Made by a program: the position numbers and the translations under genes. Positions 4,121-14,568 of a DNA stretch of 64,000 nt are shown here, one piece after another (the stretch's first letter is position 1; each line of letters starts with the position of its first letter). Under the pieces are notes generated by a model, which ran no database searches, had not been told where the DNA came from, and worked only from the letters and a program-made list of their open reading frames with translations. The stretch is from Hadesarchaea archaeon (GTDB taxonomy: Archaea; Hadarchaeota; Hadarchaeia; Hadarchaeales; Hadarchaeaceae), in contig JAPDJH010000001.1 in the NCBI GenBank assembly GCA_029259175.1, forward strand, positions 32,001 to 96,000, read 5' to 3'.

Positions 4121-4939
4121 TCAGAACTTTCTGGGATACGAGCCCAAGATCTTCAACATCGCGGTCTTTTGCCTCACGCCCTCCAGCGCCTCCACGACGA
4201 CCGGATCCTCGCGGTGGCCCTCGAAATCGATGAAAAAGAGATAATCGCCCAGTGCCTTCTTGGAGGGTCTCGACTCGATCTTCGTGAGATTGATCTTTCT
4301 GGAGGCGAACTCTCCGAGAATCTCGTACAGGATGCCAGGACGATCCCGCTCCGTGTAAAACACTATCGACGTCTTGTCCTTTCCCGAGGGGGGCGAGTCG
4401 GATTTGCCAAGACAGAAGAAGCGCGTGAGGTTTTCCTCGCCCTCGGAGACGTTATCTCTCAGTATCTCCAGCCCGTAGAGCTCAGCAAGCCGGGCCGGGC
4501 CCACCGCCGCCATGTGCGATTGTCTCAGCTTGGCCACCTGCTCCGCGGCGCGCGCGGTGCTCGTCATCTCGATCAGCTCCACATTGGGGAGGTGGGTCTG
4601 GAAGAACCTCCGGGATTGGGAGAGAGCCTGCGGATGCGACAGTACCTGCGTTATCTGGTCCAAGCGCGTGCCCGGAACCACCAGCAACGCATGAGTCACG
4701 GGCAGAACGATTTCCGCTTTAACCCTGACGTCCATCCACGCCAGCGCATCCAGCGCTTCTCCCACCGAACCCTCGCGCAAGCTTTCGACCGGGATGACCC
4801 CGTGCTCCACCGCTCCCTCAGCAACCAAGCGTGCCACGTCCGTGATGCTCTGGCAGTAGAAAAAATCCGCTTTCCCGAAGTATTCCAGCGCCGCCAGCTC
4901 CGAGAAAGTCCCGCGCGGACCCAGAACGGCAACCCTCAT
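4121..4939 (-). CDS. pheA: Prephenate dehydratase with ACT domain
   Basis: LGPRGTFS, SHPQALSQ, TRF and INLTKIESRP motifs. Confidence 0.95.
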   Translation of the reverse strand: MRVAVLGPRGTFSELAALEYFGKADFFYCQSITDVARLVAEGAVEHGVIPVESLREGSVGEALDALAWMDVRVKAEIVLPVTHALLVVPGTRLDQITQVLSHPQALSQSRRFFQTHLPNVELIEMTSTARAAEQVAKLRQSHMAAVGPARLAELYGLEILRDNVSEGEENLTRFFCLGKSDSPPSGKDKTSIVFYTERDRPGILYEILGEFASRKINLTKIESRPSKKALGDYLFFIDFEGHREDPVVVEALEGVRQKTAMLKILGSYPRKF

Positions 4940-5790
4940 TCCATCACCTCGAAATTCTCGTACAGCTTCTTGTACGCGTCCTGCACATCTGACTGTGGAA
5001 GGATCTCACGCAGCTTTTCGAAGACCTCGTGGACGCTTTTCAGATTGCCCGCGGAGAGCATGGTGTCCAAGCTCTTACAGGCCTCGATCAGACGCGCACG
5101 CACGATTCTGGAATATGTGTTGTACACCTGAATCTCACCGTAGAGCTCCGGACTGGCAGCCAACATGGCCTCCGCCGTCCTGAAGAGGGAGTTGAACAAA
5201 GGTGTGCGGATGGGCCGCTTGTCAAACTCGCGCAGCGACTCGTAGGCCGAGAGATAGCCCAAGAGCACGAAGTGGGTCATGCACTGAATCACTGCCATGA
5301 GCTTGTCGTGATCCTCGGCGCTCATCTCGGTGACTCTCGCGCCCAGCGACTCCAAGGACCTTACGAATCGCTTGTAGACGCTGGCCGTGCGCACCGGGAC
5401 GCTGATCACGTCCTTTCCTTGGAGCGTGGTGGCGCCGGGACCGAAAAGGGGATGGATGGACGCGAGCTCGCAATCGGTGCTGAGGCCCTTCATCGTATCC
5501 ACCACCCGTTCCTTCACCGAGCTCAGATCGACCAACAAACGATTTTTCTTCATCTTTGGAGCGATGTCCTCAAGCACCCTCGGGGTCTCGGGAATGGGCA
5601 CGGCCACCATCACCACATCGGCATCCGGCTCGAGCTCCTTCGCGCTCACGTACTCCACTCCCAAACGCGAAGCAACCCGGCTGGCCTTGCGCCCATCGAT
5701 ATCGCACAGCACCACCTCTCCCACGTTCTCCTTCCACACACGGGCCATCCAGCTGCCCATCGCTCCACATCCGATGATGAGCACCCTCAC
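4936..5790 (-). CDS. tyrA: Prephenate dehydrogenase
   Basis: GxGxMG Rossmann motif, DLSSVK, HPLFGP, HDKLMA. Confidence 0.92.
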   Translation of the reverse strand: MRVLIIGCGAMGSWMARVWKENVGEVVLCDIDGRKASRVASRLGVEYVSAKELEPDADVVMVAVPIPETPRVLEDIAPKMKKNRLLVDLSSVKERVVDTMKGLSTDCELASIHPLFGPGATTLQGKDVISVPVRTASVYKRFVRSLESLGARVTEMSAEDHDKLMAVIQCMTHFVLLGYLSAYESLREFDKRPIRTPLFNSLFRTAEAMLAASPELYGEIQVYNTYSRIVRARLIEACKSLDTMLSAGNLKSVHEVFEKLREILPQSDVQDAYKKLYENFEVME

Positions 5791-6638
5791 TCTCGTCCCT
5801 CCGCAGCTCTTTTAGCCGCGCGCATCATGGTGTGTAAAGGGGGATCCCTCCGCGTCCACAGCTTGAAAGAGAGCGCCGCTTGGTAGACCAGCATCTGGAG
5901 ACCGTCCACGGTCCGGCACCCTGCTTTCTCTGCCTCCCTCAGCAGTCTGGTCCGAAGCGGCTTGTACACGATATCCATCACCGATACCTCCGGACTCAGC
6001 ATGTCTGCCGTAACGAGTGTGTCTTCGGGATGCGGCAACATGCCAACAGAGGTGGCGTTTATCAACAGATCGGATCCGGAAAGCGCTTTCTTTAGCTCAC
6101 GCTTACGCAGCCCTATGATTCTGATCTCCGCGCCGAGCTTTTTCCGGAGGATTGCGGCGAGCGCCTCAGCACGAGACACCGTTCGATTCGCAACCACCAC
6201 CTGGCACCCCTTCTGCACCAGAGAAAAAACTATCGCGCGAGCGGCGCCGCCCGCGCCCAGCACCACTACCCGCATCCCGCTTATGGGCCCGAGATTTTTC
6301 TCGAGGGCCCGCATCGCCCCCTCTCCATCCGTGTTGTAGCCCACAAGGACCCCTTTTCGGTTCACCACGGTGTTGACGGCCTCCACCAACGAGGCCGAGC
6401 GATCCAAGCGGTCCAACAAGCTCATCACATCAACCTTGTAAGGAATAGTGACGTTGAAACCCTTGGTCCAAAACCTTGAGGCGCTGACCACTTGGGAGAG
6501 GTATCCCTGCGGGGTCTCTACAGCAACATAAAGGGCGCGCATCCGCAGGGCGCGAAAAGCCGCATTGTGAATGGCGGGCGAAAGACTTCCAGACACCGGA
6601 TTGCCGACCAGCATATAGAGCGAAAAGGGCCTGCTCAA
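5787..6638 (-). CDS. aroE: Shikimate dehydrogenase
   Basis: SLSPAIHN, NVTIPYK, AVNT, NTDG and GAGGAARA motifs. Confidence 0.95.
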   Translation of the reverse strand: MSRPFSLYMLVGNPVSGSLSPAIHNAAFRALRMRALYVAVETPQGYLSQVVSASRFWTKGFNVTIPYKVDVMSLLDRLDRSASLVEAVNTVVNRKGVLVGYNTDGEGAMRALEKNLGPISGMRVVVLGAGGAARAIVFSLVQKGCQVVVANRTVSRAEALAAILRKKLGAEIRIIGLRKRELKKALSGSDLLINATSVGMLPHPEDTLVTADMLSPEVSVMDIVYKPLRTRLLREAEKAGCRTVDGLQMLVYQAALSFKLWTRRDPPLHTMMRAAKRAAEGRE

Positions 6639-7360
6639 TCTTCGACCTCCCAGCGCGGAAGCGAACTCAGTACCCGCACCGTTTCCCGCACACTCAGCTG
6701 TCCCGGTGCCGTTGGCTTTCCGGCTGCCGCGTACACAAGCGGAACCCCCACTATGGGCCCAACGAAGCGGGTGAACATTCCGGCCTCTCCCATGGCAAAC
6801 GCGATGACTGGCCGATCCACCACATCACGACTTGAAACGACGAATTCAAGAATTCTCAGACCGTCCCTCAGCGTGCATGCAGTCGTAACTATTTTGAGCA
6901 AATCGCAGGGGCGCCGAGCCATCCGCCCGGCCAGCGCAAGCAATCGAGCTGGTCTCGGAGTTCGCTTGAAGTCGTGATGCGAGAGAAGAATTGACGTATG
7001 CCCAGCCTTTTCCCGAATCTGAGCGGCCAAACGAGGGGGCGTCGAGAACTCCACATCCACGCACTCCACTCCACTCGAGACCCCCTGAACGAGAAGGCGA
7101 ACCCGCTCTGACTCCGATCCACGGAAGTGCCCCCCCTCTCTCGGGGAACGATTGGTAAGAATTACAGGACCATCCAGATCAAGTACTCTCTCCCACCCAC
7201 CGAAATTTCTTAGAGAGTCTATCCGGAGCTCAACCACATCAGCACCCTCTGAGATCGCCTTCTTAGCTAATTGGAGCATCGACCTCGGCGTGGGGGCCTG
7301 GACCGCTGCACAAACAGCTGGGGTTCTGATGCGTCTTCGACCCAAACGGATCTCGCCCAT
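6635..7360 (-). CDS. aroD: Type I 3-dehydroquinate dehydratase
   Basis: ELRID, REGG, SHHDF and APGQ motifs. Confidence 0.92.
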   Translation of the reverse strand: MGEIRLGRRRIRTPAVCAAVQAPTPRSMLQLAKKAISEGADVVELRIDSLRNFGGWERVLDLDGPVILTNRSPREGGHFRGSESERVRLLVQGVSSGVECVDVEFSTPPRLAAQIREKAGHTSILLSHHDFKRTPRPARLLALAGRMARRPCDLLKIVTTACTLRDGLRILEFVVSSRDVVDRPVIAFAMGEAGMFTRFVGPIVGVPLVYAAAGKPTAPGQLSVRETVRVLSSLPRWEVED

Positions 7361-7366
7361 AACTGC

Positions 7367-8476
7367 TCACCGCTCGACCAGCGTCTCCTCCACCCGCTTG
7401 CCGAAGTGCCGCCCGCCCGCCTCCACCAAAACCAGCAGCTCTTGGCCGGGGGACAGACGGGTGACCGGAATCGGGTTTCCATTAGCATCCACAAGATTGA
7501 TCGTTTCAGCGTTCTGCAACAAGACCTTGAACGTCCTGCCGGCGCTCTCCGCCTCAACAAGCACCATGGGTCTGCGCTCTATCTTCACTCGTCCCACAAC
7601 CGCCGGGCGTCCCCTTCCCTTAGAATCGACGACCAAGACCTCGTCCCCTGCTTTCAGCTCCGAGAGATACTTGGTTTTCCCTCCCGGCACGCGGATGTAG
7701 GAATGTACCCCACCGGCGTTCACGCGGAAAGGTCTGGGCTCCACGAACTCGCTCGGAAGCGTCTCGGAGTGCACGAGAAAGAGCCCCTCTGCCTGGCTTC
7801 CGACCAGCATTCCCTCTCCAACCTCCAGCATCGAAGTGGTGTCGACGCAGGCCCTGTCGCCAATCCCGGCGGGCGTAACGCTGACTACGCGGGCAGTTGT
7901 CAAGGAGAGCGACTCCCTGCTCAGCTCGTCCAGGCGCTCACACGTTCGTTCGATCTCCTTTGGATCGCGTGAATCGAGCAGAACACCGTGTGTTCCAACC
8001 TCAAGTGTTTGGGCCGCCAGCACGGCCTCGTCAGCGCTCCTCACCTCAGCCAAAAGCCGTCCGGGGAGTTTTTGGAAATCGGCGATCAGGTTTTCCAGCG
8101 GGATTATCTTCCAGTCCTTGGCGCAAACCAAAACAAAATCGGCGACAGACCCCAGCTCCGCCGCCGCTCGCTCGCTCTGCTTGTCGACCACATCAACAGT
8201 CACTGCTGTTTTCTTTCCGCTCTGCTTCACGCGCGTGGCCCAGCCCTTCACCTCCTGCAGCTCGGATGGCGAACTCAACCGCCTGAGGACCACACCCACC
8301 CCTGGCAGGTCCTCAGAGGAGGCGACTAGCACTGATCCGAGCTCCAGAACCGGGCGGACTTCGTCGGGGCGGACCACTATGGCATCCACGCCGCACTCTA
8401 TGGCTTTCTTCACGAGTTTCTTTTTAGTGTCCCAGCTCTCCTCTCCATCGGCCCGAACCCACACCAACTTGCGCAA
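7367..8476 (-). CDS. aroB': 3-dehydroquinate synthase II (archaeal AroB')
   Basis: DWKIIPLENLIA, GDRACVD, RPFRVNAG, LQNAETI and GRHFG motifs. Confidence 0.93.
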   Translation of the reverse strand: MRKLVWVRADGEESWDTKKKLVKKAIECGVDAIVVRPDEVRPVLELGSVLVASSEDLPGVGVVLRRLSSPSELQEVKGWATRVKQSGKKTAVTVDVVDKQSERAAAELGSVADFVLVCAKDWKIIPLENLIADFQKLPGRLLAEVRSADEAVLAAQTLEVGTHGVLLDSRDPKEIERTCERLDELSRESLSLTTARVVSVTPAGIGDRACVDTTSMLEVGEGMLVGSQAEGLFLVHSETLPSEFVEPRPFRVNAGGVHSYIRVPGGKTKYLSELKAGDEVLVVDSKGRGRPAVVGRVKIERRPMVLVEAESAGRTFKVLLQNAETINLVDANGNPIPVTRLSPGQELLVLVEAGGRHFGKRVEETLVER

Positions 8477-8483
8477 CGTTTCT

Positions 8484-9293
8484 TCACCCTTCGAGTTCCT
8501 TCATTGCCTCATCGACAGAAAAACCCTCGTGGACGATTTTGGCTAGAGCCCGCGTCATGCGCATTGGGTCGCGATGCTGGAAAATATTGCGGCCTATGGA
8601 GATCCCAATAGCCCCGGCTTCGATCGCGTCGGCCGCCATTTGCAACACGTCTCGCTCGGTGGCCGCCTTGGGCCCGCCGGCTATCACGACTGGAACGGGA
8701 CAACCGCGAACCACCTTGCGGAAGGAATCCACATCGCCAGTGTAGACAGTCTTCACGATGTCGGCCCCGAGTTCGGCACCCACACGTGCCGCATGGGCGA
8801 CCAAGTCCGGATCGTGCTGATTCTTGACTTTCGGGCCACGCGGATACATCATGGCAAACAGAGGTATCCCCCATCGATCACACGCTTCGGCAACCTCCCC
8901 CAGAGTTCTAAGCTGCTCCGGCTCGTTCGTCGCCCCCACGTTGATGTGAACCGACACTCCATCGGCGCCCAATGCGAGCGCCTCCTCAACCGAGGCCACT
9001 TGGACCTTAGAGTTCGGGTCCGGACCCAAGGACGTGCTTCCCGAGAGGTGAATTATCAGACCGATATCGCGGCCGTATCCGCGGTGCCCTGCTCGAACGA
9101 TCCCCTTGTGGAGCACCACCGCGTTGGCGCCCCCTTCAGCAACACTGTTGATGGTGGCCGCCATGTCCTCCAAGCCCTGAATCGGACCCATGGAAAGGCC
9201 GTGGTCCATGGGGACGATCACGGTGCGTCTTGTCTTCCTGTCGATGATGCGCTCAAGCCTTATTCGCTTGCCCACCTCGGACAGCCAAATCAC
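8484..9293 (-). CDS. aroA': 2-amino-3,7-dideoxy-D-threo-hept-6-ulosonate synthase (archaeal AroA', class I aldolase)
   Basis: [23 protein letters not shown] and GRNIFQ motifs; adjacent to aroB'. Confidence 0.9.
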
Positions 9294-9362: not shown

Positions 9363-9569
9363 CTACGATAAATCGTGGAGTTCCAAGATCGGGTTTCGAG
9401 ACTACGATAAATCGTAGTTGGTGCTGATTCTGCATGTTCTCCCCTTGCGCTCGTGGTGATGAGCTCTACGATAAATCGTAGAGTTCCCCAACTCAAATCG
9501 CGAGGTCTACGATAAATCGTAGACTTTCCATTCCGAACCGGGGCGCGAGAGGACTACGATAAATCGTAG
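9363..9569. repeat. Five copies of the 16-bp palindrome CTACGAT-AA-ATCGTAG (putative operator array)
   Basis: Copies at 9363-9378 (one mismatch), 9402-9417, 9466-9481, 9507-9522 and 9554-9569, in the intergenic region between divergent aro operons. Confidence 0.95.
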
Positions 9570-9619
9570 ACCTTCTTCTCAATTCAGTCATCATTATAGG
9601 CTCACAACACAAAACCAAC

Positions 9620-10915
9620 TTGATGAAACTGCTCGTGCGTCCCTCGCGGCTCTCGGGAAAAGTAAGAGCGCCCCCATCGAAATCCTACACCCACCGGGCC
9701 TTCATCATTGCCGCCCTAGCCGAGGGTGAAAGCCGGATTCATCACCCCCTCCTCAGCCTCGATACGCAAGCGACCATTGAGGGAATAAAAGCACTCGGTG
9801 CCCGCGTTGAGCGAAAGGGCGAAGCGTGGATCGTGAGGGGAACTGGAGGACAGGTCCGAGCGAAGCAAAGAGAGATCGATGCCCTGAACTCGGGAACAAC
9901 CCTCAGGATTCTTGCCGCAGTCGGTGCACTCTCCCCAGCCCCTATCCGCCTCACGGGAGATCGCTCGTTGCTCAGACGGCCCATGGGGCCGCTAATCGAT
10001 GCGCTCAAACAGCTCGGAGCCGAGGCGAAATGCCAAGGGGCCAACGGACGACCGCCAGTGGTCGTCGGCGGAGGACTCGAAGGTGGAGAAACCGAAATCA
10101 CCGGCACTGTTAGCTCACAATTCATATCCGCCTTGCTCATCGCTGGCACCCAGGCACGGGAGGATGTGGAGATAACCATAACCGATGAGCTTCGATCCAA
10201 GCCCTACGTCGAAATCACCTTGGATCTGTTGCGAAAGGCCGGGGCGCGCATCAAGCACGACAAATCGCTCATGTGGTTCAAAGTCGAGGGGCGCCAAAGA
10301 CTGAAACCGCTCGACATCGAGATACCAGGTGACTTTTCCTCCGCCAGCTTCGTGCTCGGGGGGGCGGCCCTCACCGGCTCCTGCGTGGAAGTCGACAATC
10401 TGAACTACCGGGGTGTCCAAGGGGATCGGCGCATAGTGGACTATCTTCGCGAATTCGGCGCAGAGGTGGAGGTAAAAACCGGCGCGATCTCGGTTCGTGG
10501 AAGCGAGCTTTCGGGCAGCGAGTTCGACTGTGCCGACACGCCCGATCTCGTTCCAGTGCTAGCTGTGCTCGGCAGTATCGCAGACGGAACCACCGAAATC
10601 CGAAACGTCCCGCATCTCCGGATCAAGGAAAGCGATCGCATCAGAACGCTGACCATTGGGCTCGAGCGCTTGGGAGCACGGGTAAAGGAGCTGGAAGACG
10701 GTTTGAAACTCTTTGGGCGTAAGGGGCTGACGGGGAACACGGTGGACTCCTATGGAGACCACCGGATAGCCATGGCGCTGACGATTGCTGGGCTCGTAGC
10801 CACCGGGCAAACTCTCGTAAGCGGTGCTGAAAGCATTCCCGTATCGTATCCGGGTTTTGTCGACGATTTGAAAAAGCTCGGGGCTCGAATAGAAATTATC
10901 ACTTCTAAACCCTAA
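9620..10915 (+). CDS. aroA: EPSP synthase (3-phosphoshikimate 1-carboxyvinyltransferase)
   Basis: PPSKSYTHR, NSGTTLR, RPM, SSQF, GDFSSA, RIKESDR and DHR motifs all intact. Confidence 0.96.
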   Translation: MMKLLVRPSRLSGKVRAPPSKSYTHRAFIIAALAEGESRIHHPLLSLDTQATIEGIKALGARVERKGEAWIVRGTGGQVRAKQREIDALNSGTTLRILAAVGALSPAPIRLTGDRSLLRRPMGPLIDALKQLGAEAKCQGANGRPPVVVGGGLEGGETEITGTVSSQFISALLIAGTQAREDVEITITDELRSKPYVEITLDLLRKAGARIKHDKSLMWFKVEGRQRLKPLDIEIPGDFSSASFVLGGAALTGSCVEVDNLNYRGVQGDRRIVDYLREFGAEVEVKTGAISVRGSELSGSEFDCADTPDLVPVLAVLGSIADGTTEIRNVPHLRIKESDRIRTLTIGLERLGARVKELEDGLKLFGRKGLTGNTVDSYGDHRIAMALTIAGLVATGQTLVSGAESIPVSYPGFVDDLKKLGARIEIITSKP

Positions 10916-11053
10916 AACACAGCAGCACAAAGCCTGTTTCTAATTTTCACTTACTGTTTGGCTTTCCCAACAGCACGATCGGCGGGTTGTTGGTGTACAG
11001 GCACACAAAGCAACGGTTAAGAGAGTAAAAACAGAAATGAGAGGGGTCAGCAC

Positions 11054-12148
11054 ATGGGAGGAAACTCCTTTGGCACTGCGTTCAAAGTGACCACTTGGGG
11101 GGAGAGCCACGGCAGGGCCGTCGGTGTGGTAGTCGACGGTGTTCCCGCCGGACTCTCGCTCTCGGAAAAAGACATCCAGCGCGAGCTCGACCGGCGCAGA
11201 CCGGGGAGTTCGCGGGTGACGAGTCCTCGGCGCGAACTCGACCGTGTCGAGATCCTCTCCGGAGTTTTTAGAGGAAAAACACTCGGCACCCCCATCTCGA
11301 TGCTCGTGTGGAACAGGGATGTGGACTCCAGACCATATGAGCTGATAAAACGAAAGCCCCGGCCAGGACACGCCGACCTCACCTACTGGCTGAAGTATGG
11401 CCACGTGGACTACCGCGGTGGAGGGCGGGCCTCGGCACGTGAAACCGTGGGGCGAGTAGCCGCTGGCGCGATAGCCAAAAAGCTTCTGGGGCTGAAGAGA
11501 GTGGAGATTCTCGGCCACACGATCGAAGCCGCTGGAGTTTCCGTGGGAAGGGAAATCAAGCCAGCACAGATCAAACGCTATGCCGAAAAAAACGAGATGC
11601 GTTGCGCCGATCCCAAAACGGCAAAGAAAATGCTTCAAGCGGTCTTGGATGCTGCCTCCCGAGGGGACACCACAGGAGGGGTGGTAGAGGTGATCGCCTT
11701 AAACGTCCCCGCTGGACTTGGCGAACCGGTCTTCGACAAACTGGATGCGGATCTCGCAAAGGCAATGATGTCGATCGGCGCGGTCAAAGCTGTTGAGATG
11801 GGAGCCGGCCGAGACTTCTCCACCATGCTGGGCTCCGAAGCCAACGATCCCATTTCCGTTCGTCGAGGGCGAATCGTAACATTGACGAACAAAGCCGGGG
11901 GAATCTTGGGTGGGATCTCAACCGGCATGCCAATCCGTGTGAGGATAACAGTAAAGCCGCCGTCATCGATCCGTAAACCCCAAACGACTGTCGATCTTGA
12001 AACATGGAAGGAAACTGAACTCAAACTTGCAGGACGGTTTGACCCGAACCTCTGTCCACGCGTTGTACCTGTTGCTGAAGCGATGATGGCCATAGTGCTC
12101 GCAGACCACATGTTGCGAGCGGGCATCATCAACCCGAACCAAGTCTAG
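11054..12148 (+). CDS. aroC: Chorismate synthase
   Basis: GESHG, RPGHAD, RASARET and GGILGGIS motifs. Confidence 0.96.
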
Positions 12149-13026
12149 TGAGGCGAGCAGGATTGTACAGTGTTGGAATCGCGTCGGCTTGCGCCTCAGC
12201 TACGATTGTGAATGCTTTGGCGACTGGAAAGGGCGCTGCCTTTGGGATAGAGCTGCGTGTGTACGCTCGGGTCGAAATCGGAGACAAATTGCGTGGAGTA
12301 AAGGGGCGCGTGGAAGGGAAAACGTGTGATCCGCGGCTTGTCGAACTTTGCGTCGAAAAAGTGCTCAAACGCGTTGGCATCTCAGCGGGGGCGAGAGTCC
12401 ACACGACTTCAGATATTCCGATCGCCGTTGGGTTGTCCAGCAGCAGCGCCGCCGCGAACGCTGCAACGCTCGCTACCTATGCGGCTCTCGGAGAAAAACC
12501 GAGCGAAAAAGAAATACTAAACATCGGGATCGAAGCCGCCTTTGACGCTGGCGTAACGCTGACGGGTGCGCTTGACGATGCCGCGGCTTCTCTTTTGGGA
12601 TGCGGGGTGGTGACCCACAATCTGAAACGCAAGATTCTGAAAAGAGTGCGCATACCGAAAAAGTACAAGGTCGCCGTTTTAGTACCCAAGCGCCGCATAT
12701 ATACCGCTGCTCTCGCCCGGAAGGACTTCTCCCGAATAGCATCCGGAGTAGACGAGGCTCATCGACTTGCACTTTCTGGAGAAATATGGCCGGCAATGAT
12801 TCTCAACGGACTGCTGTATTCATACTCGCTTGACATTGACCCCTCGCCAGCTCTCGAAGCTCTGCGCTCCGGCGCGGTGGGCGCCGGACTGACAGGCACG
12901 GGGCCGGCAGTCGTTGCAGTAGGCGAACTCGACGCCATCTTGGAAACCGTGCGCCTCTGGAGGAAAAGGAAGGAAACCATAATCTTAACAGCACCCGCAC
13001 AGAAAGGAGGGAGGGTGGAAACATAG
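12148..13026 (+). CDS. aroK: Archaeal shikimate kinase (GHMP family)
   Basis: NALATGKGAAFGI, PIAVGLSSSSA, TGALDD and GLTGTGP motifs. Confidence 0.92.
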   Translation: MRRAGLYSVGIASACASATIVNALATGKGAAFGIELRVYARVEIGDKLRGVKGRVEGKTCDPRLVELCVEKVLKRVGISAGARVHTTSDIPIAVGLSSSSAAANAATLATYAALGEKPSEKEILNIGIEAAFDAGVTLTGALDDAAASLLGCGVVTHNLKRKILKRVRIPKKYKVAVLVPKRRIYTAALARKDFSRIASGVDEAHRLALSGEIWPAMILNGLLYSYSLDIDPSPALEALRSGAVGAGLTGTGPAVVAVGELDAILETVRLWRKRKETIILTAPAQKGGRVET

Positions 13027-13814
13027 CAGTAAGCAAGGAACTCAAAGCCCTGCGCCAGCAAATTGACAGGATCGACCAGAGCATCCTCGAATTGGTTGCA
13101 CAGCGCCTGAAGCTGGCCAATCAGATAGCCCAACTCAAAAGCAGGCTGAAACTGCCGGTAACGGATGAAGTACGGGAACAAAAGGTGCTCTCACGGATTC
13201 GAAAAAAAGCAGCGGAACTCCGGATCGACCGCGACATGGCGGAATCGCTCATCCGTTATCTGATGGCGTGGTCGGTGGGAAAACAGCGGGAGCGAATAGA
13301 AAGCCCATCCGTGTGGTCTCGAATCAATCAGGTATTCGAAAACTATCCTGCCCAGCTGGAGGTGGTGAAGTTCTTGCTAAAACACGGGCTTCACGTCGGA
13401 GACGATGAAAACATATACTGTGAGGAAATCAAGATTCCCTTTACACAGATAGCCCGCCACATCGGTGTTGATCGGCGCACGGTCGAGATGACCGCCAAAA
13501 AGATCTTGGAAGATCCACAGCTGAAAAATATCTTTCAGAACTTGGAATCCACGGCATTTCTCCGCCGAGTCGCTAGAGAGCTGAATCTAGGAGTGATCGA
13601 GATAATCCCCGATGACGCTGCAAAGCCGGGCATAGTCAAGAGCGTAGCCGAAGTGGTGTCCAACGCGGGAATAAGCATCCGGCAGGTAGTCACAGACGAT
13701 CCCCACTTGAGCACCGCGCCCAAGCTGACGGTCATAACTGAGTGCCCAGTGAAGGGCGAGGTCATAGACGCTCTCAAAAAAATCCCCCACATCCGGAGCA
13801 TCATCGTGTATTGA
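13023..13814 (+). CDS. Chorismate mutase (AroQ-type) fused to an HTH+ACT regulator-like domain; probable ATA start
   Basis: The open frame upstream of the called TTG encodes ELKALRQQIDRIDQSILELVAQR (CM helix 1); C-terminal IARHIGVDRRTV HTH and PGIV...GISIRQ ACT-like segment. Confidence 0.85.
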   Translation: MAVSKELKALRQQIDRIDQSILELVAQRLKLANQIAQLKSRLKLPVTDEVREQKVLSRIRKKAAELRIDRDMAESLIRYLMAWSVGKQRERIESPSVWSRINQVFENYPAQLEVVKFLLKHGLHVGDDENIYCEEIKIPFTQIARHIGVDRRTVEMTAKKILEDPQLKNIFQNLESTAFLRRVARELNLGVIEIIPDDAAKPGIVKSVAEVVSNAGISIRQVVTDDPHLSTAPKLTVITECPVKGEVIDALKKIPHIRSIIVY

Positions 13815-13827
13815 GGAGACCCAAAAC

Positions 13828-14568
13828 ATGCGCATCCCCACGCTTCGATTCGGCAGCATCGAAAGACCTGCAAACGTGCGTCGCGTTGCCGACATGGCGG
13901 ATGTCATCTTAGATCAGGAATGGGCCGCTAAAAACCAAGACTTACCGCTCTACTATATGTATCGGGATCTGTGGTTTGAAGAAGACCGAGAGCTCATCAT
14001 GCGCCACGATCTTCGCTACGACATTACGGTCATTCCTCCGCTCGTGATGGGGAAGGAGCTGGTGAAAACCAAGGGGCACTATCACCCCGAATGTGCCCCG
14101 GGCATAACCTATCCCGAAATCTACGAGGTCGTGGAAGGACGAGCGCACTTCTTGCTCCAGAAATCCGAAGGGGACAAAATCGTAGATGCTGTGCTGGTCG
14201 AAGCGAAGAAGGGCGACAAGCTGGTCATTCCGCCCAACTACGGCCATGTGACCATCAATCCGGGGCCGAACACTTTAAAACTGGCCAACTGGGTGAGCCG
14301 CGCGTTTTCATCCCTCTACGATGAGTACGTCAAAAAGCGTGGAGCAGCGTATTACGAGCTGGTCGACGGGACCCTCACGCCCAACCCCCACTATGGCGAC
14401 GTTCCCCAGCTGAGAAGATTGAAAGCTGTTGAGATTCCAGAACTAGGAATAGAAAGAGCACGGGATTTGTATTCGCTCATCAAAAACCCAGAACGTCTGG
14501 CTTTTCTGAACCGGCCACAGGAGTTCACATGGTTGTTCGCACGAACCTTGGAACGGACTACATCTTGA
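13828..14568 (+). CDS. pgiA: Cupin-type glucose-6-phosphate isomerase
   Basis: LRYDITVIPP, KTKGHYH, YPEIYEV and PPNYGH motifs. Confidence 0.88.
   Translation: MRIPTLRFGSIERPANVRRVADMADVILDQEWAAKNQDLPLYYMYRDLWFEEDRELIMRHDLRYDITVIPPLVMGKELVKTKGHYHPECAPGITYPEIYEVVEGRAHFLLQKSEGDKIVDAVLVEAKKGDKLVIPPNYGHVTINPGPNTLKLANWVSRAFSSLYDEYVKKRGAAYYELVDGTLTPNPHYGDVPQLRRLKAVEIPELGIERARDLYSLIKNPERLAFLNRPQEFTWLFARTLERTTS

Follow-up and report, generated by a model that had tools for sequence, protein, structure and literature searches.

A chorismate mutase joined to a TrpY-family regulator module in Hadarchaeia, with a candidate operator at the trp promoter

Results

The fusion gene and its domains

The stretch of DNA studied here, a window of 64,000 nt from a Hadesarchaea archaeon (contig JAPDJH010000001.1 of assembly GCA_029259175.1, positions 32,001 to 96,000 of the forward strand), carries a gene which, on its domain matches, is an AroQ chorismate mutase (CM) joined to a complete TrpY-family regulator module. 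The features of this gene are listed below as positions in the window, with amino acid (aa) numbers counted from the ATA codon at 13023.

13023..13814, + strand: CM-TrpY fusion open reading frame (ORF), 263 codons plus stop (13812-13814), with a probable non-canonical ATA start
13050..13286, + strand: AroQ chorismate mutase domain, aa 10-88, Pfam CM_2, 73.7 bits
13311..13316, + strand: junction codons GTG-TGG (V97-W98), the equivalent of the 'MW' N-terminus in stand-alone TrpY proteins
13314..13802, + strand: TrpY-family regulator module, aa 98-260, NF053754
13437..13484, + strand: helix-turn-helix (HTH)-like segment PFTQIARHIGVDRRTV, aa 139-154
13623..13787, + strand: ACT-like domain, aa 201-255

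The frame from 13023 to 13814 is free of stops across its 263 codons. Residues 10-88 match the Pfam family CM_2 with an E-value of 1.4e-20 and a score well above the cut-off of 27 bits, which bears out the claim of an N-terminal AroQ-type chorismate mutase made in an earlier note on this DNA; the motifs quoted there (LRQQIDRID at aa 10-18, PFTQIARHIGVDRRTV at aa 139-154 and PGIV...GISIRQ at aa 202-221) are likewise all present. Two narrower mutase models are just missed, TIGR01791 at 66.9 against 66.95 and PRK06285 at 72.9 against 77. The remainder of the protein had been likened to the 'predicted regulator of amino acid metabolism, ACT domain' family, which is now named the TrpY family, and the NCBIfam model 'TrpY family transcription regulator' (NF053754) matches aa 98-260 over profile positions 1-163 of 163 with 210.5 bits (cut-off 180). 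The note's picture of an enzyme that shares its chain with a transcription-factor module is thus fairly drawn. In alignment A2, which holds 39 fusion rows and 10 stand-alone rows, TrpY_fam is matched by all 49 rows and the CM models are also matched by the 39 fusion rows.

Residues R11, R28, K39, D48, R51 and E52 are present in the window protein and invariant in 39/39 fusion rows; at position 88, 15 fusions have Q and 24 have E. Together with Q/E88, the six invariant residues are what we take to be the AroQ catalytic positions (E. coli numbering). The genome amounts to 1.31 Mb and is 91% complete, and in it CM_2 and the TrpY family are each matched by the fusion alone, with no CM_1 domain found. 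Because the catalytic residues are invariant and no other mutase gene was found, we read the N-terminal domain as a working mutase and the only one that the cell possesses, and chorismate mutase activity would be expected of the fusion.

The join between the two halves falls exactly at the N-terminus of the TrpY module. W98 is invariant in 39/39 fusions and residue 97 before it is variable (M16 V7 W6 L3 F3 I2 G2), and most of the stand-alone proteins fetched (n=40) have a W at or within a few residues of their N-terminus, often as 'MW'. A W at the second position of the module (the 'MW' start) is presumably a mark of the TrpY family. Further along, D150, R151 and R152 of the GVDRR segment are invariant in the 39 fusion and 10 stand-alone rows. 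The ACT part scores weakly by itself (Pfam ACT E 0.002, 18.3 bits, below the cut-off of 27), and in a PDB profile search the module profile matches the ACT domain of 2ko1 with an E-value of 0.008. PDB profile searches found no solved relative of the module's N-terminal part by sequence. The stretch AQLEVVKFLLKHGLHV (aa 108-130, 13344-13412) is near enough to the ankyrin-repeat consensus to draw DARPins in these searches, a likeness which we regard as spurious, with no single stretch passing. No prephenate dehydratase (PDT) domain was found by Pfam within the fusion protein, which departs from the PheA-type order CM-PDT-ACT.

Distribution and origin of the fusion

The class Hadarchaeia, which equals one order with five families, was sampled in 65 genomes including this one, and whole-genome search matched the fusion in 61 of them. 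All but one of these matches are full-length and none contains a stop, the exception (G042) being truncated by a contig end. Because matches occur in 61 of 65 class genomes, the fusion is far beyond chance. CM_2 scores above cut-off only at the fusion's own coordinates, as one gene per genome in 61/65, and it is absent in the same four genomes that lack a fusion match, which are 56-89% complete; in G031 the same fusion gene appears on two contigs. The single genome from the phylum's other class yielded neither the fusion nor trpE. Both are also missing from G007 (83% complete) and G065 (91%), which may be a real loss or, for G007, the effect of one missing contig.

All 28 of the named full-length fusion loci belong to Hadesarchaea/Candidatus Hadarchaeota. 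When 39 fusion modules are placed in a tree with 55 stand-alone proteins, the fusions group in one clade (support 100/99), which fits a single fusion event, and the fusion would appear to be ancestral to Hadarchaeia, ancient and class-wide. The earlier note held that the module normally stands alone, and this agrees with a search in which, among the best 150 of 1.84 billion representatives, 146 match only within residues 88-263, the others being one full-length fusion, one fragment across the junction and two CM-only proteins. A word-indexed search returned 10 fusion-length clusters, all metagenomic, and 15 stand-alone clusters. Public names for the fusion are 'hypothetical protein' or 'chorismate mutase family protein', with one JGI record reading 'predicted regulator of amino acid metabolism with ACT domain/chorismate mutase'. 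As the public names miss the regulator half, annotation would gain from recognition of the fusion. In the metagenome protein P0146 (285 aa), part of a DeoC/ADH-synthase-like domain precedes a TrpY-like HTH/ACT part; this join has one representative only and could be an artefact of gene calling.

Boxes at the trp promoter

The trpEGDCFBA operon of this genome lies on another contig, outside the window, and its promoter carries the following element.

G000:C3:62017-62052 (about 5017-5052 in L056): phased box motif of the trpE promoter

The sequence upstream of trpE reads TGTACA-aaag-TGTACA-ctaaag-tattaaata-GTACA, with boxes starting at motif positions 1, 11 and 31. Boxes 1 and 2 stand one helical turn apart before an element resembling the B recognition element (BRE) and TATA box, and box 3 follows two turns on, just behind that element. 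There are 182 TGTACA sites in the genome, with two sites within 40 bp at only two places, and the sole exact TGTACA-N4-TGTACA in the 1.31 Mb is that of the trpE promoter; a reversed control gave none at 0 or 1 mismatch. Near-perfect double boxes are found at three other places in the genome, two of them inside long ORFs. The 36-nt motif as a whole is unique in the genome, with 2 mismatches at trpE and 13 at the next best place. Across the class, in an ungapped comparison that allowed <=10 mismatches and in which the consensus was derived from the loci and then scored on them, the motif is found at 45/52 trpE loci (43/52 at <=9), made up of subsets of 29/30 including this genome's own, 2/2 (G050 and G052) and 14/20. 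In the 30-locus set, sequence away from the motif comes no closer than 14-18 mismatches. The fusion gene itself lies close to this element in ten genomes from three families (G005, G008, G014, G016, G021, G030, G031, G038, G040 and G055), where trpE follows less than 800 bp downstream of the fusion on the same strand and the motif sits in the gap between the two.

The TrpY protein of Methanothermobacter thermautotrophicus (MtTrpY) acts on TRP boxes where the trpY and trpE promoters overlap: it binds them and, in the presence of tryptophan (Trp), represses trpEGCFBAD (PMC6737238). The fusion resembles it in belonging to the same curated family, with the conserved W at the module's second position, the GVDRR segment and an ACT-like C-terminus, and the Hadarchaeial trp promoter has repeated boxes overlapping the BRE/TATA, with the fusion adjoining trpE in the ten genomes. 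It differs in that the Hadarchaeial module stands behind a chorismate mutase at the end of an aro operon, co-directional with trpE. In Methanothermobacter, trpY is presumably divergent from trpE. Homology and the conserved cis-element together suggest that the module would bind the boxes, take tryptophan as its ligand and repress the operon. TGTACA boxes at a trp promoter suit a TrpY-family protein, so tryptophan is likelier as the ligand than phenylalanine (Phe) or tyrosine (Tyr); any sensing of chorismate or prephenate by the fusion is purely conjectural.

A number of observations weigh against this assignment, beyond the fact that the consensus was scored on the loci that gave it. Five missed loci score 11-14 mismatches, with remnants of boxes 1 and 2 visible, and one shuffle set reached 10. 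The fusion and the motif also do not always occur together: G010 has the fusion, yet both trpE-like loci examined there are without the motif (15-18 mismatches), and G050 (89% complete) and G052 (78%) have the motif but no fusion was found in them. Among stand-alone TrpY-like loci, 0/52 have a trp gene within 3 kb and 0/52 have two TGTACA within 40 bp; in five named genomes trpE lies further down its operon. The TRP box of the Methanothermobacter TrpY is presumed to be TGTACA, the consensus reportedly given by Xie and Reeve in the abstract of their 2005 paper; a literature text search linking TrpY with TGTACA gave nothing relevant. The homologue from Thermococcus kodakarensis, TkTrpY (TK1227), is 42% identical to MtTrpY and, according to PMC6737238, neither binds specifically to nor regulates the trp promoter, which makes this TrpY-family relative of the fusion the main caution against a transfer of function by homology. 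Finally, the HTH is not recognised by Pfam, which gave only sub-threshold matches (HTH_AsnC-type, E 0.051), in 1/31 orthologous N-terminal segments.

The undetected HTH would be accounted for if the TrpY-like module had lost its DNA binding and served only as an amino-acid-sensing allosteric domain of the mutase, like ACT in PheA, with some other factor reading the boxes. A mutase and an ACT domain on one chain is a known allosteric arrangement, and in P0146 the same module follows part of a DeoC/ADH-synthase-like enzyme. The case of TkTrpY shows in addition that family members need not regulate trp (PMC6737238). Against a purely allosteric role, the DRR (150-152) of the putative DNA-reading GVDRR segment is equally invariant in 39/39 fusions and 10/10 stand-alone proteins, all 163 profile positions are matched, and the adjacency to trpE in 10 genomes and the TGTACA motif fit a DNA-binding TrpY. 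We therefore consider this alternative rather unlikely.

Translation start

Another point against a bifunctional protein lies in the gene itself, which has no ATG, GTG or TTG at the fusion's conserved N-terminus. The first in-frame canonical start is the TTG at 13092, which would cost the first 23 residues including the invariant R11. An independent sequencing run (X8) gave a contig identical over 12967-13117, so the missing canonical start is not an assembly error. The ATA at 13023 shares bases with the aroK stop (ATAG) and is preceded by a Shine-Dalgarno-like GGAGGGTG run (window 13009-13031), and the longer run GGAGGGAGGGTGGA is also found 5' of the ATG in a same-genus orthologue. It is likely that translation starts at ATA 13023, coupled to that of aroK. 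The relative L044 is likewise without a canonical start at the equivalent place.

It could otherwise be supposed that in this genome the mutase part is not made, and that a start at TTG 13092, or else at GTG 13311 in the junction, yields a truncated mutase or a stand-alone TrpY. The missing canonical start would be explained in this way, the 99%-identical P0002 was begun at TTG by a gene caller, and the GTG-TGG of the junction recreates the family's 'MW' start. Residues 1-23, however, still fit the orthologue consensus, including R11, and the domain that would be lost is the sole CM_2/CM_1 domain found in a genome that retains both PDT and prephenate dehydrogenase (PDH). The ATAG overlap and the Shine-Dalgarno-like run, present also in the same-genus relative, fit coupled translation, and position 97 is unconserved as a start codon across the fusions. 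A truncated product is thus highly improbable in our estimation, and we retain the ATA start and the full-length fusion in what follows.

Gene neighbourhood and expression

The fusion gene closes a series of aro genes on the forward strand, opposite which a divergent operon of six genes runs from a shared intergenic region.

9620..10915, + strand: aroA, EPSP synthase (Pfam-type domain search)
11054..12148, + strand: aroC, chorismate synthase (domain search)
12148..13026, + strand: aroK, GHMP-type shikimate kinase, its stop overlapping the fusion start
13828-14568, + strand: cupin-type glucose-6-phosphate isomerase, directly downstream of the fusion
4121..9293, - strand: divergent operon of six genes, sharing its intergenic region with the aroA side
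8484-9293, - strand: ADH synthase
7367-8476, - strand: DHQ synthase II
6635-7360, - strand: aroD
5787-6638, - strand: aroE
4936-5790, - strand: prephenate dehydrogenase
4121-4939, - strand: prephenate dehydratase-ACT (PDT-ACT), a separate gene
9363..9569, intergenic: five 16-bp palindromes CTACGATAAATCGTAG between the divergent aro operons, 3.4 kb upstream of the fusion

The order aroC-aroK-fusion is kept in 20/20 relatives examined, and the cupin-type glucose-6-phosphate isomerase is the same neighbour in two relatives (L032 and L033). The earlier note had described the fusion as the last aro gene of an operon driven from the palindrome array; the gene order upholds the first part of this statement, and the second part is not required, since a conserved TATA-like element, GGATTTATAGA, lies about 35 nt upstream of aroC in the relatives and implies a separate promoter for aroC-aroK-fusion. 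A lone TGTACA occurs at 10994, in the aroA-aroC gap of the window; we considered it as a sign of such boxes at aro promoters and take it to be there by chance, 0/20 relatives having one at that place.

Contigs from an RNA library are identical to the window at 9430-9762, 10118-10616, 12178-12604 and 13493-13733. At most they hint weakly at transcription of the operon and of part of the array, as carry-over of DNA is possible; these expression data consist of contigs only, with no transcript start, strand or level, and the stretches that they do not cover are uninformative. The contig at 9430-9762 covers palindromes 3-5 and the 5' end of aroA and, if it does derive from RNA, this part of the array would be the leader of aroA.

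The palindrome array

The five copies of CTACGATAAATCGTAG in 9363-9569 compare with 0.16 expected, and the genome holds 14 copies of the 16-mer at <=1 mismatch in three arrays, the other two of which are as follows.

G000:C7:6771-6875: second array, preceding a Trm5b-like tRNA methyltransferase gene and opposite a carbamoyltransferase gene
G000:C14:4048-4326: third array, flanked by the 3' ends of two genes, one XdhA-like and one for an aldehyde:ferredoxin oxidoreductase (AOR)

The three arrays are homologous as wholes, with spacer modules common to all. In a near-identical strain (metagenome contig L242) a different spacer module is found at the same place, and the array is rearranged in another sequencing run. 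Upstream of the aro operon the palindrome is missing from all 20 relatives compared, de novo inspection of these 20 upstream regions found no other repeated palindrome, and the 64 other class genomes together hold one single copy of the 16-mer, with 1 mismatch. Scans of metagenomes and viruses gave, among the matches listed, single chance-level matches to the 16-mer with the exception of L242. The array is therefore a young, strain-variable and species-specific repeat, and we judge that it is not the conserved partner of the fusion.

We also looked for other explanations of the array. It has a likeness to a REP/BIME mosaic with its RAYT, and it is a likeness only, no Y1 transposase (PF01797) having been found in the 91%-complete genome. 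Nor does the length of the spacer mark the array as an insertion, the ADH synthase-aroA spacer being 326 bp here against about 85 to 414 bp in relatives, as measured between the ends of high-scoring segment pairs. Rfam gave one sub-threshold miRNA match only on the array. The array folds well as RNA (z -5.5), which is trivial because it is made of palindromes.

The earlier note had proposed the fusion as a candidate regulator for the palindrome array. In such a model the fusion would bind the palindromes in the divergent aro promoter region and regulate the aro, phe and tyr genes, with an aromatic amino acid, chorismate or prephenate as the signal. There are reasons to take this seriously: five copies lie between the divergent aro operons 3.4 kb upstream of the gene, a palindrome would suit a dimeric regulator, the fusion is the genome's only TrpY-family protein, and the RNA-library contig at 9430-9762 indicates that the region is at least present in the RNA library. 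The co-occurrence of fusion and palindrome, which the note had offered as a check, fails, the single 1-mismatch copy outside this genome contrasting with the 60 of the 64 genomes that carry the fusion, since the array is young and species-specific and the fusion ancient and class-wide. In addition, the 16-mer is confined to this genome, with 0/20 relatives having it upstream of the aro operon; the three arrays share whole spacer modules and vary between strains; one of them lies between convergent genes, and the neighbours of the arrays (Trm5b-like, carbamoyltransferase, XdhA-like and AOR) form no aromatic regulon. Perfect TGTACA boxes are also kept at trpE in this genome, and the invariant GVDRR segment is unchanged. 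It is accordingly very unlikely that the palindrome is what the fusion reads, and we return below to the trp promoter boxes as its candidate target.

Discussion

We have described a gene in which a pathway enzyme and a regulator module share one chain, and the reading that we favour, at a little better than even confidence, is that this one protein acts at the chorismate branch point both as the cell's sole chorismate mutase and as a Trp-responsive repressor of trp. The N-terminal AroQ domain would supply the only chorismate mutase of the cell and feed prephenate to the separate prephenate dehydratase and dehydrogenase. The C-terminal part would be the lineage's TrpY orthologue and would bind the phased TGTACA boxes on either side of the BRE/TATA at the trpEGDCFBA promoter; once Trp occupies the ACT domain, TBP and TFB would be occluded and the trp promoter shut. 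AroQ mutases are obligate intertwined dimers, so dimerisation of the AroQ domain would hold two DNA-reading modules together.

Chorismate mutase and anthranilate synthase compete for chorismate. Since a putative Trp sensor is here joined to the mutase, Trp binding may also tune that enzyme, and we speculate that one protein could in this way set the split of chorismate between Trp and Phe/Tyr. Yeast Aro7 and plant chorismate mutases are activated by Trp, a cross-pathway control at the chorismate branch point. They offer a model for this speculative allosteric step, and differ from the fusion in their regulatory architecture and in having no DNA binding. A more ambitious version, which we regard as doubtful, would make the fusion a branch-point integrator of a hitherto undescribed kind: Trp in the ACT site would close the trp promoter and alter the mutase, DNA binding would in turn respond to chorismate or prephenate at the mutase site, and one dimer would partition chorismate both transcriptionally and enzymatically, with the fusion perhaps also recruited to the newly arisen palindrome arrays of this species.

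Several known systems share parts of this arrangement. The P-protein PheA likewise carries an AroQ mutase and an ACT domain on one chain and senses an end product. The fusion differs from it in having no PDT, which is encoded here by a separate gene (4121-4939), and in that its sensing module also includes the N-terminal part of TrpY, which is putatively DNA-binding; PMC11237513 discusses the CM-PDT fusion. In T. kodakarensis, according to PMC6737238, Tar (TK0271), the aromatic amino acid regulator of the Thermococcales, activates aro, trp and tyr-phe genes through TGGACA-N8-TGTCCA. Tar resembles the fusion in that its gene lies inside an aro operon and in acting on the trp promoter through a palindrome near the BRE/TATA. 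It differs in coming from an unrelated family (a homologue being considered a MarR-family protein), in being an activator with its own site, TGGACA-N8-TGTCCA, and in having no enzyme domain (PMC6737238). The archaeal riboflavin kinase/regulator RbkR, a 'trigger enzyme', also combines a pathway enzyme and a transcription-factor module in one polypeptide (PMC5397151). In that case the enzyme and DNA-binding families are other ones, and the predicted target of the fusion is the competing branch (trp) rather than its own pathway.

The TrpY family itself is known; what appears to be new is a member of that family in a lineage-defining fusion with a pathway enzyme. Literature searches on TrpY with archaeal terms or with chorismate mutase found no description of the fusion, and the accessible text of a catalogue of archaeal fusions (PMC11237513) makes no mention of a CM-TrpY fusion, although the cluster tables of that paper, or the Figure S7 tree of 105 TrpY homologues in PMC6737238, may list it.

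In the TrpY family only one regulator has a demonstrated function, which a second homologue put to the test lacks (PMC6737238). Against this background an uncultured phylum gains a concrete candidate pair of operator and regulator, with phased TGTACA boxes in front of trpE and one protein that may read them. In this protein the regulator module would have become attached, in a single and lasting event, to the mutase, the competitor of anthranilate synthase for chorismate. Such an architecture invites a look at whether enzyme activity and transcription are controlled together where the pathway branches.

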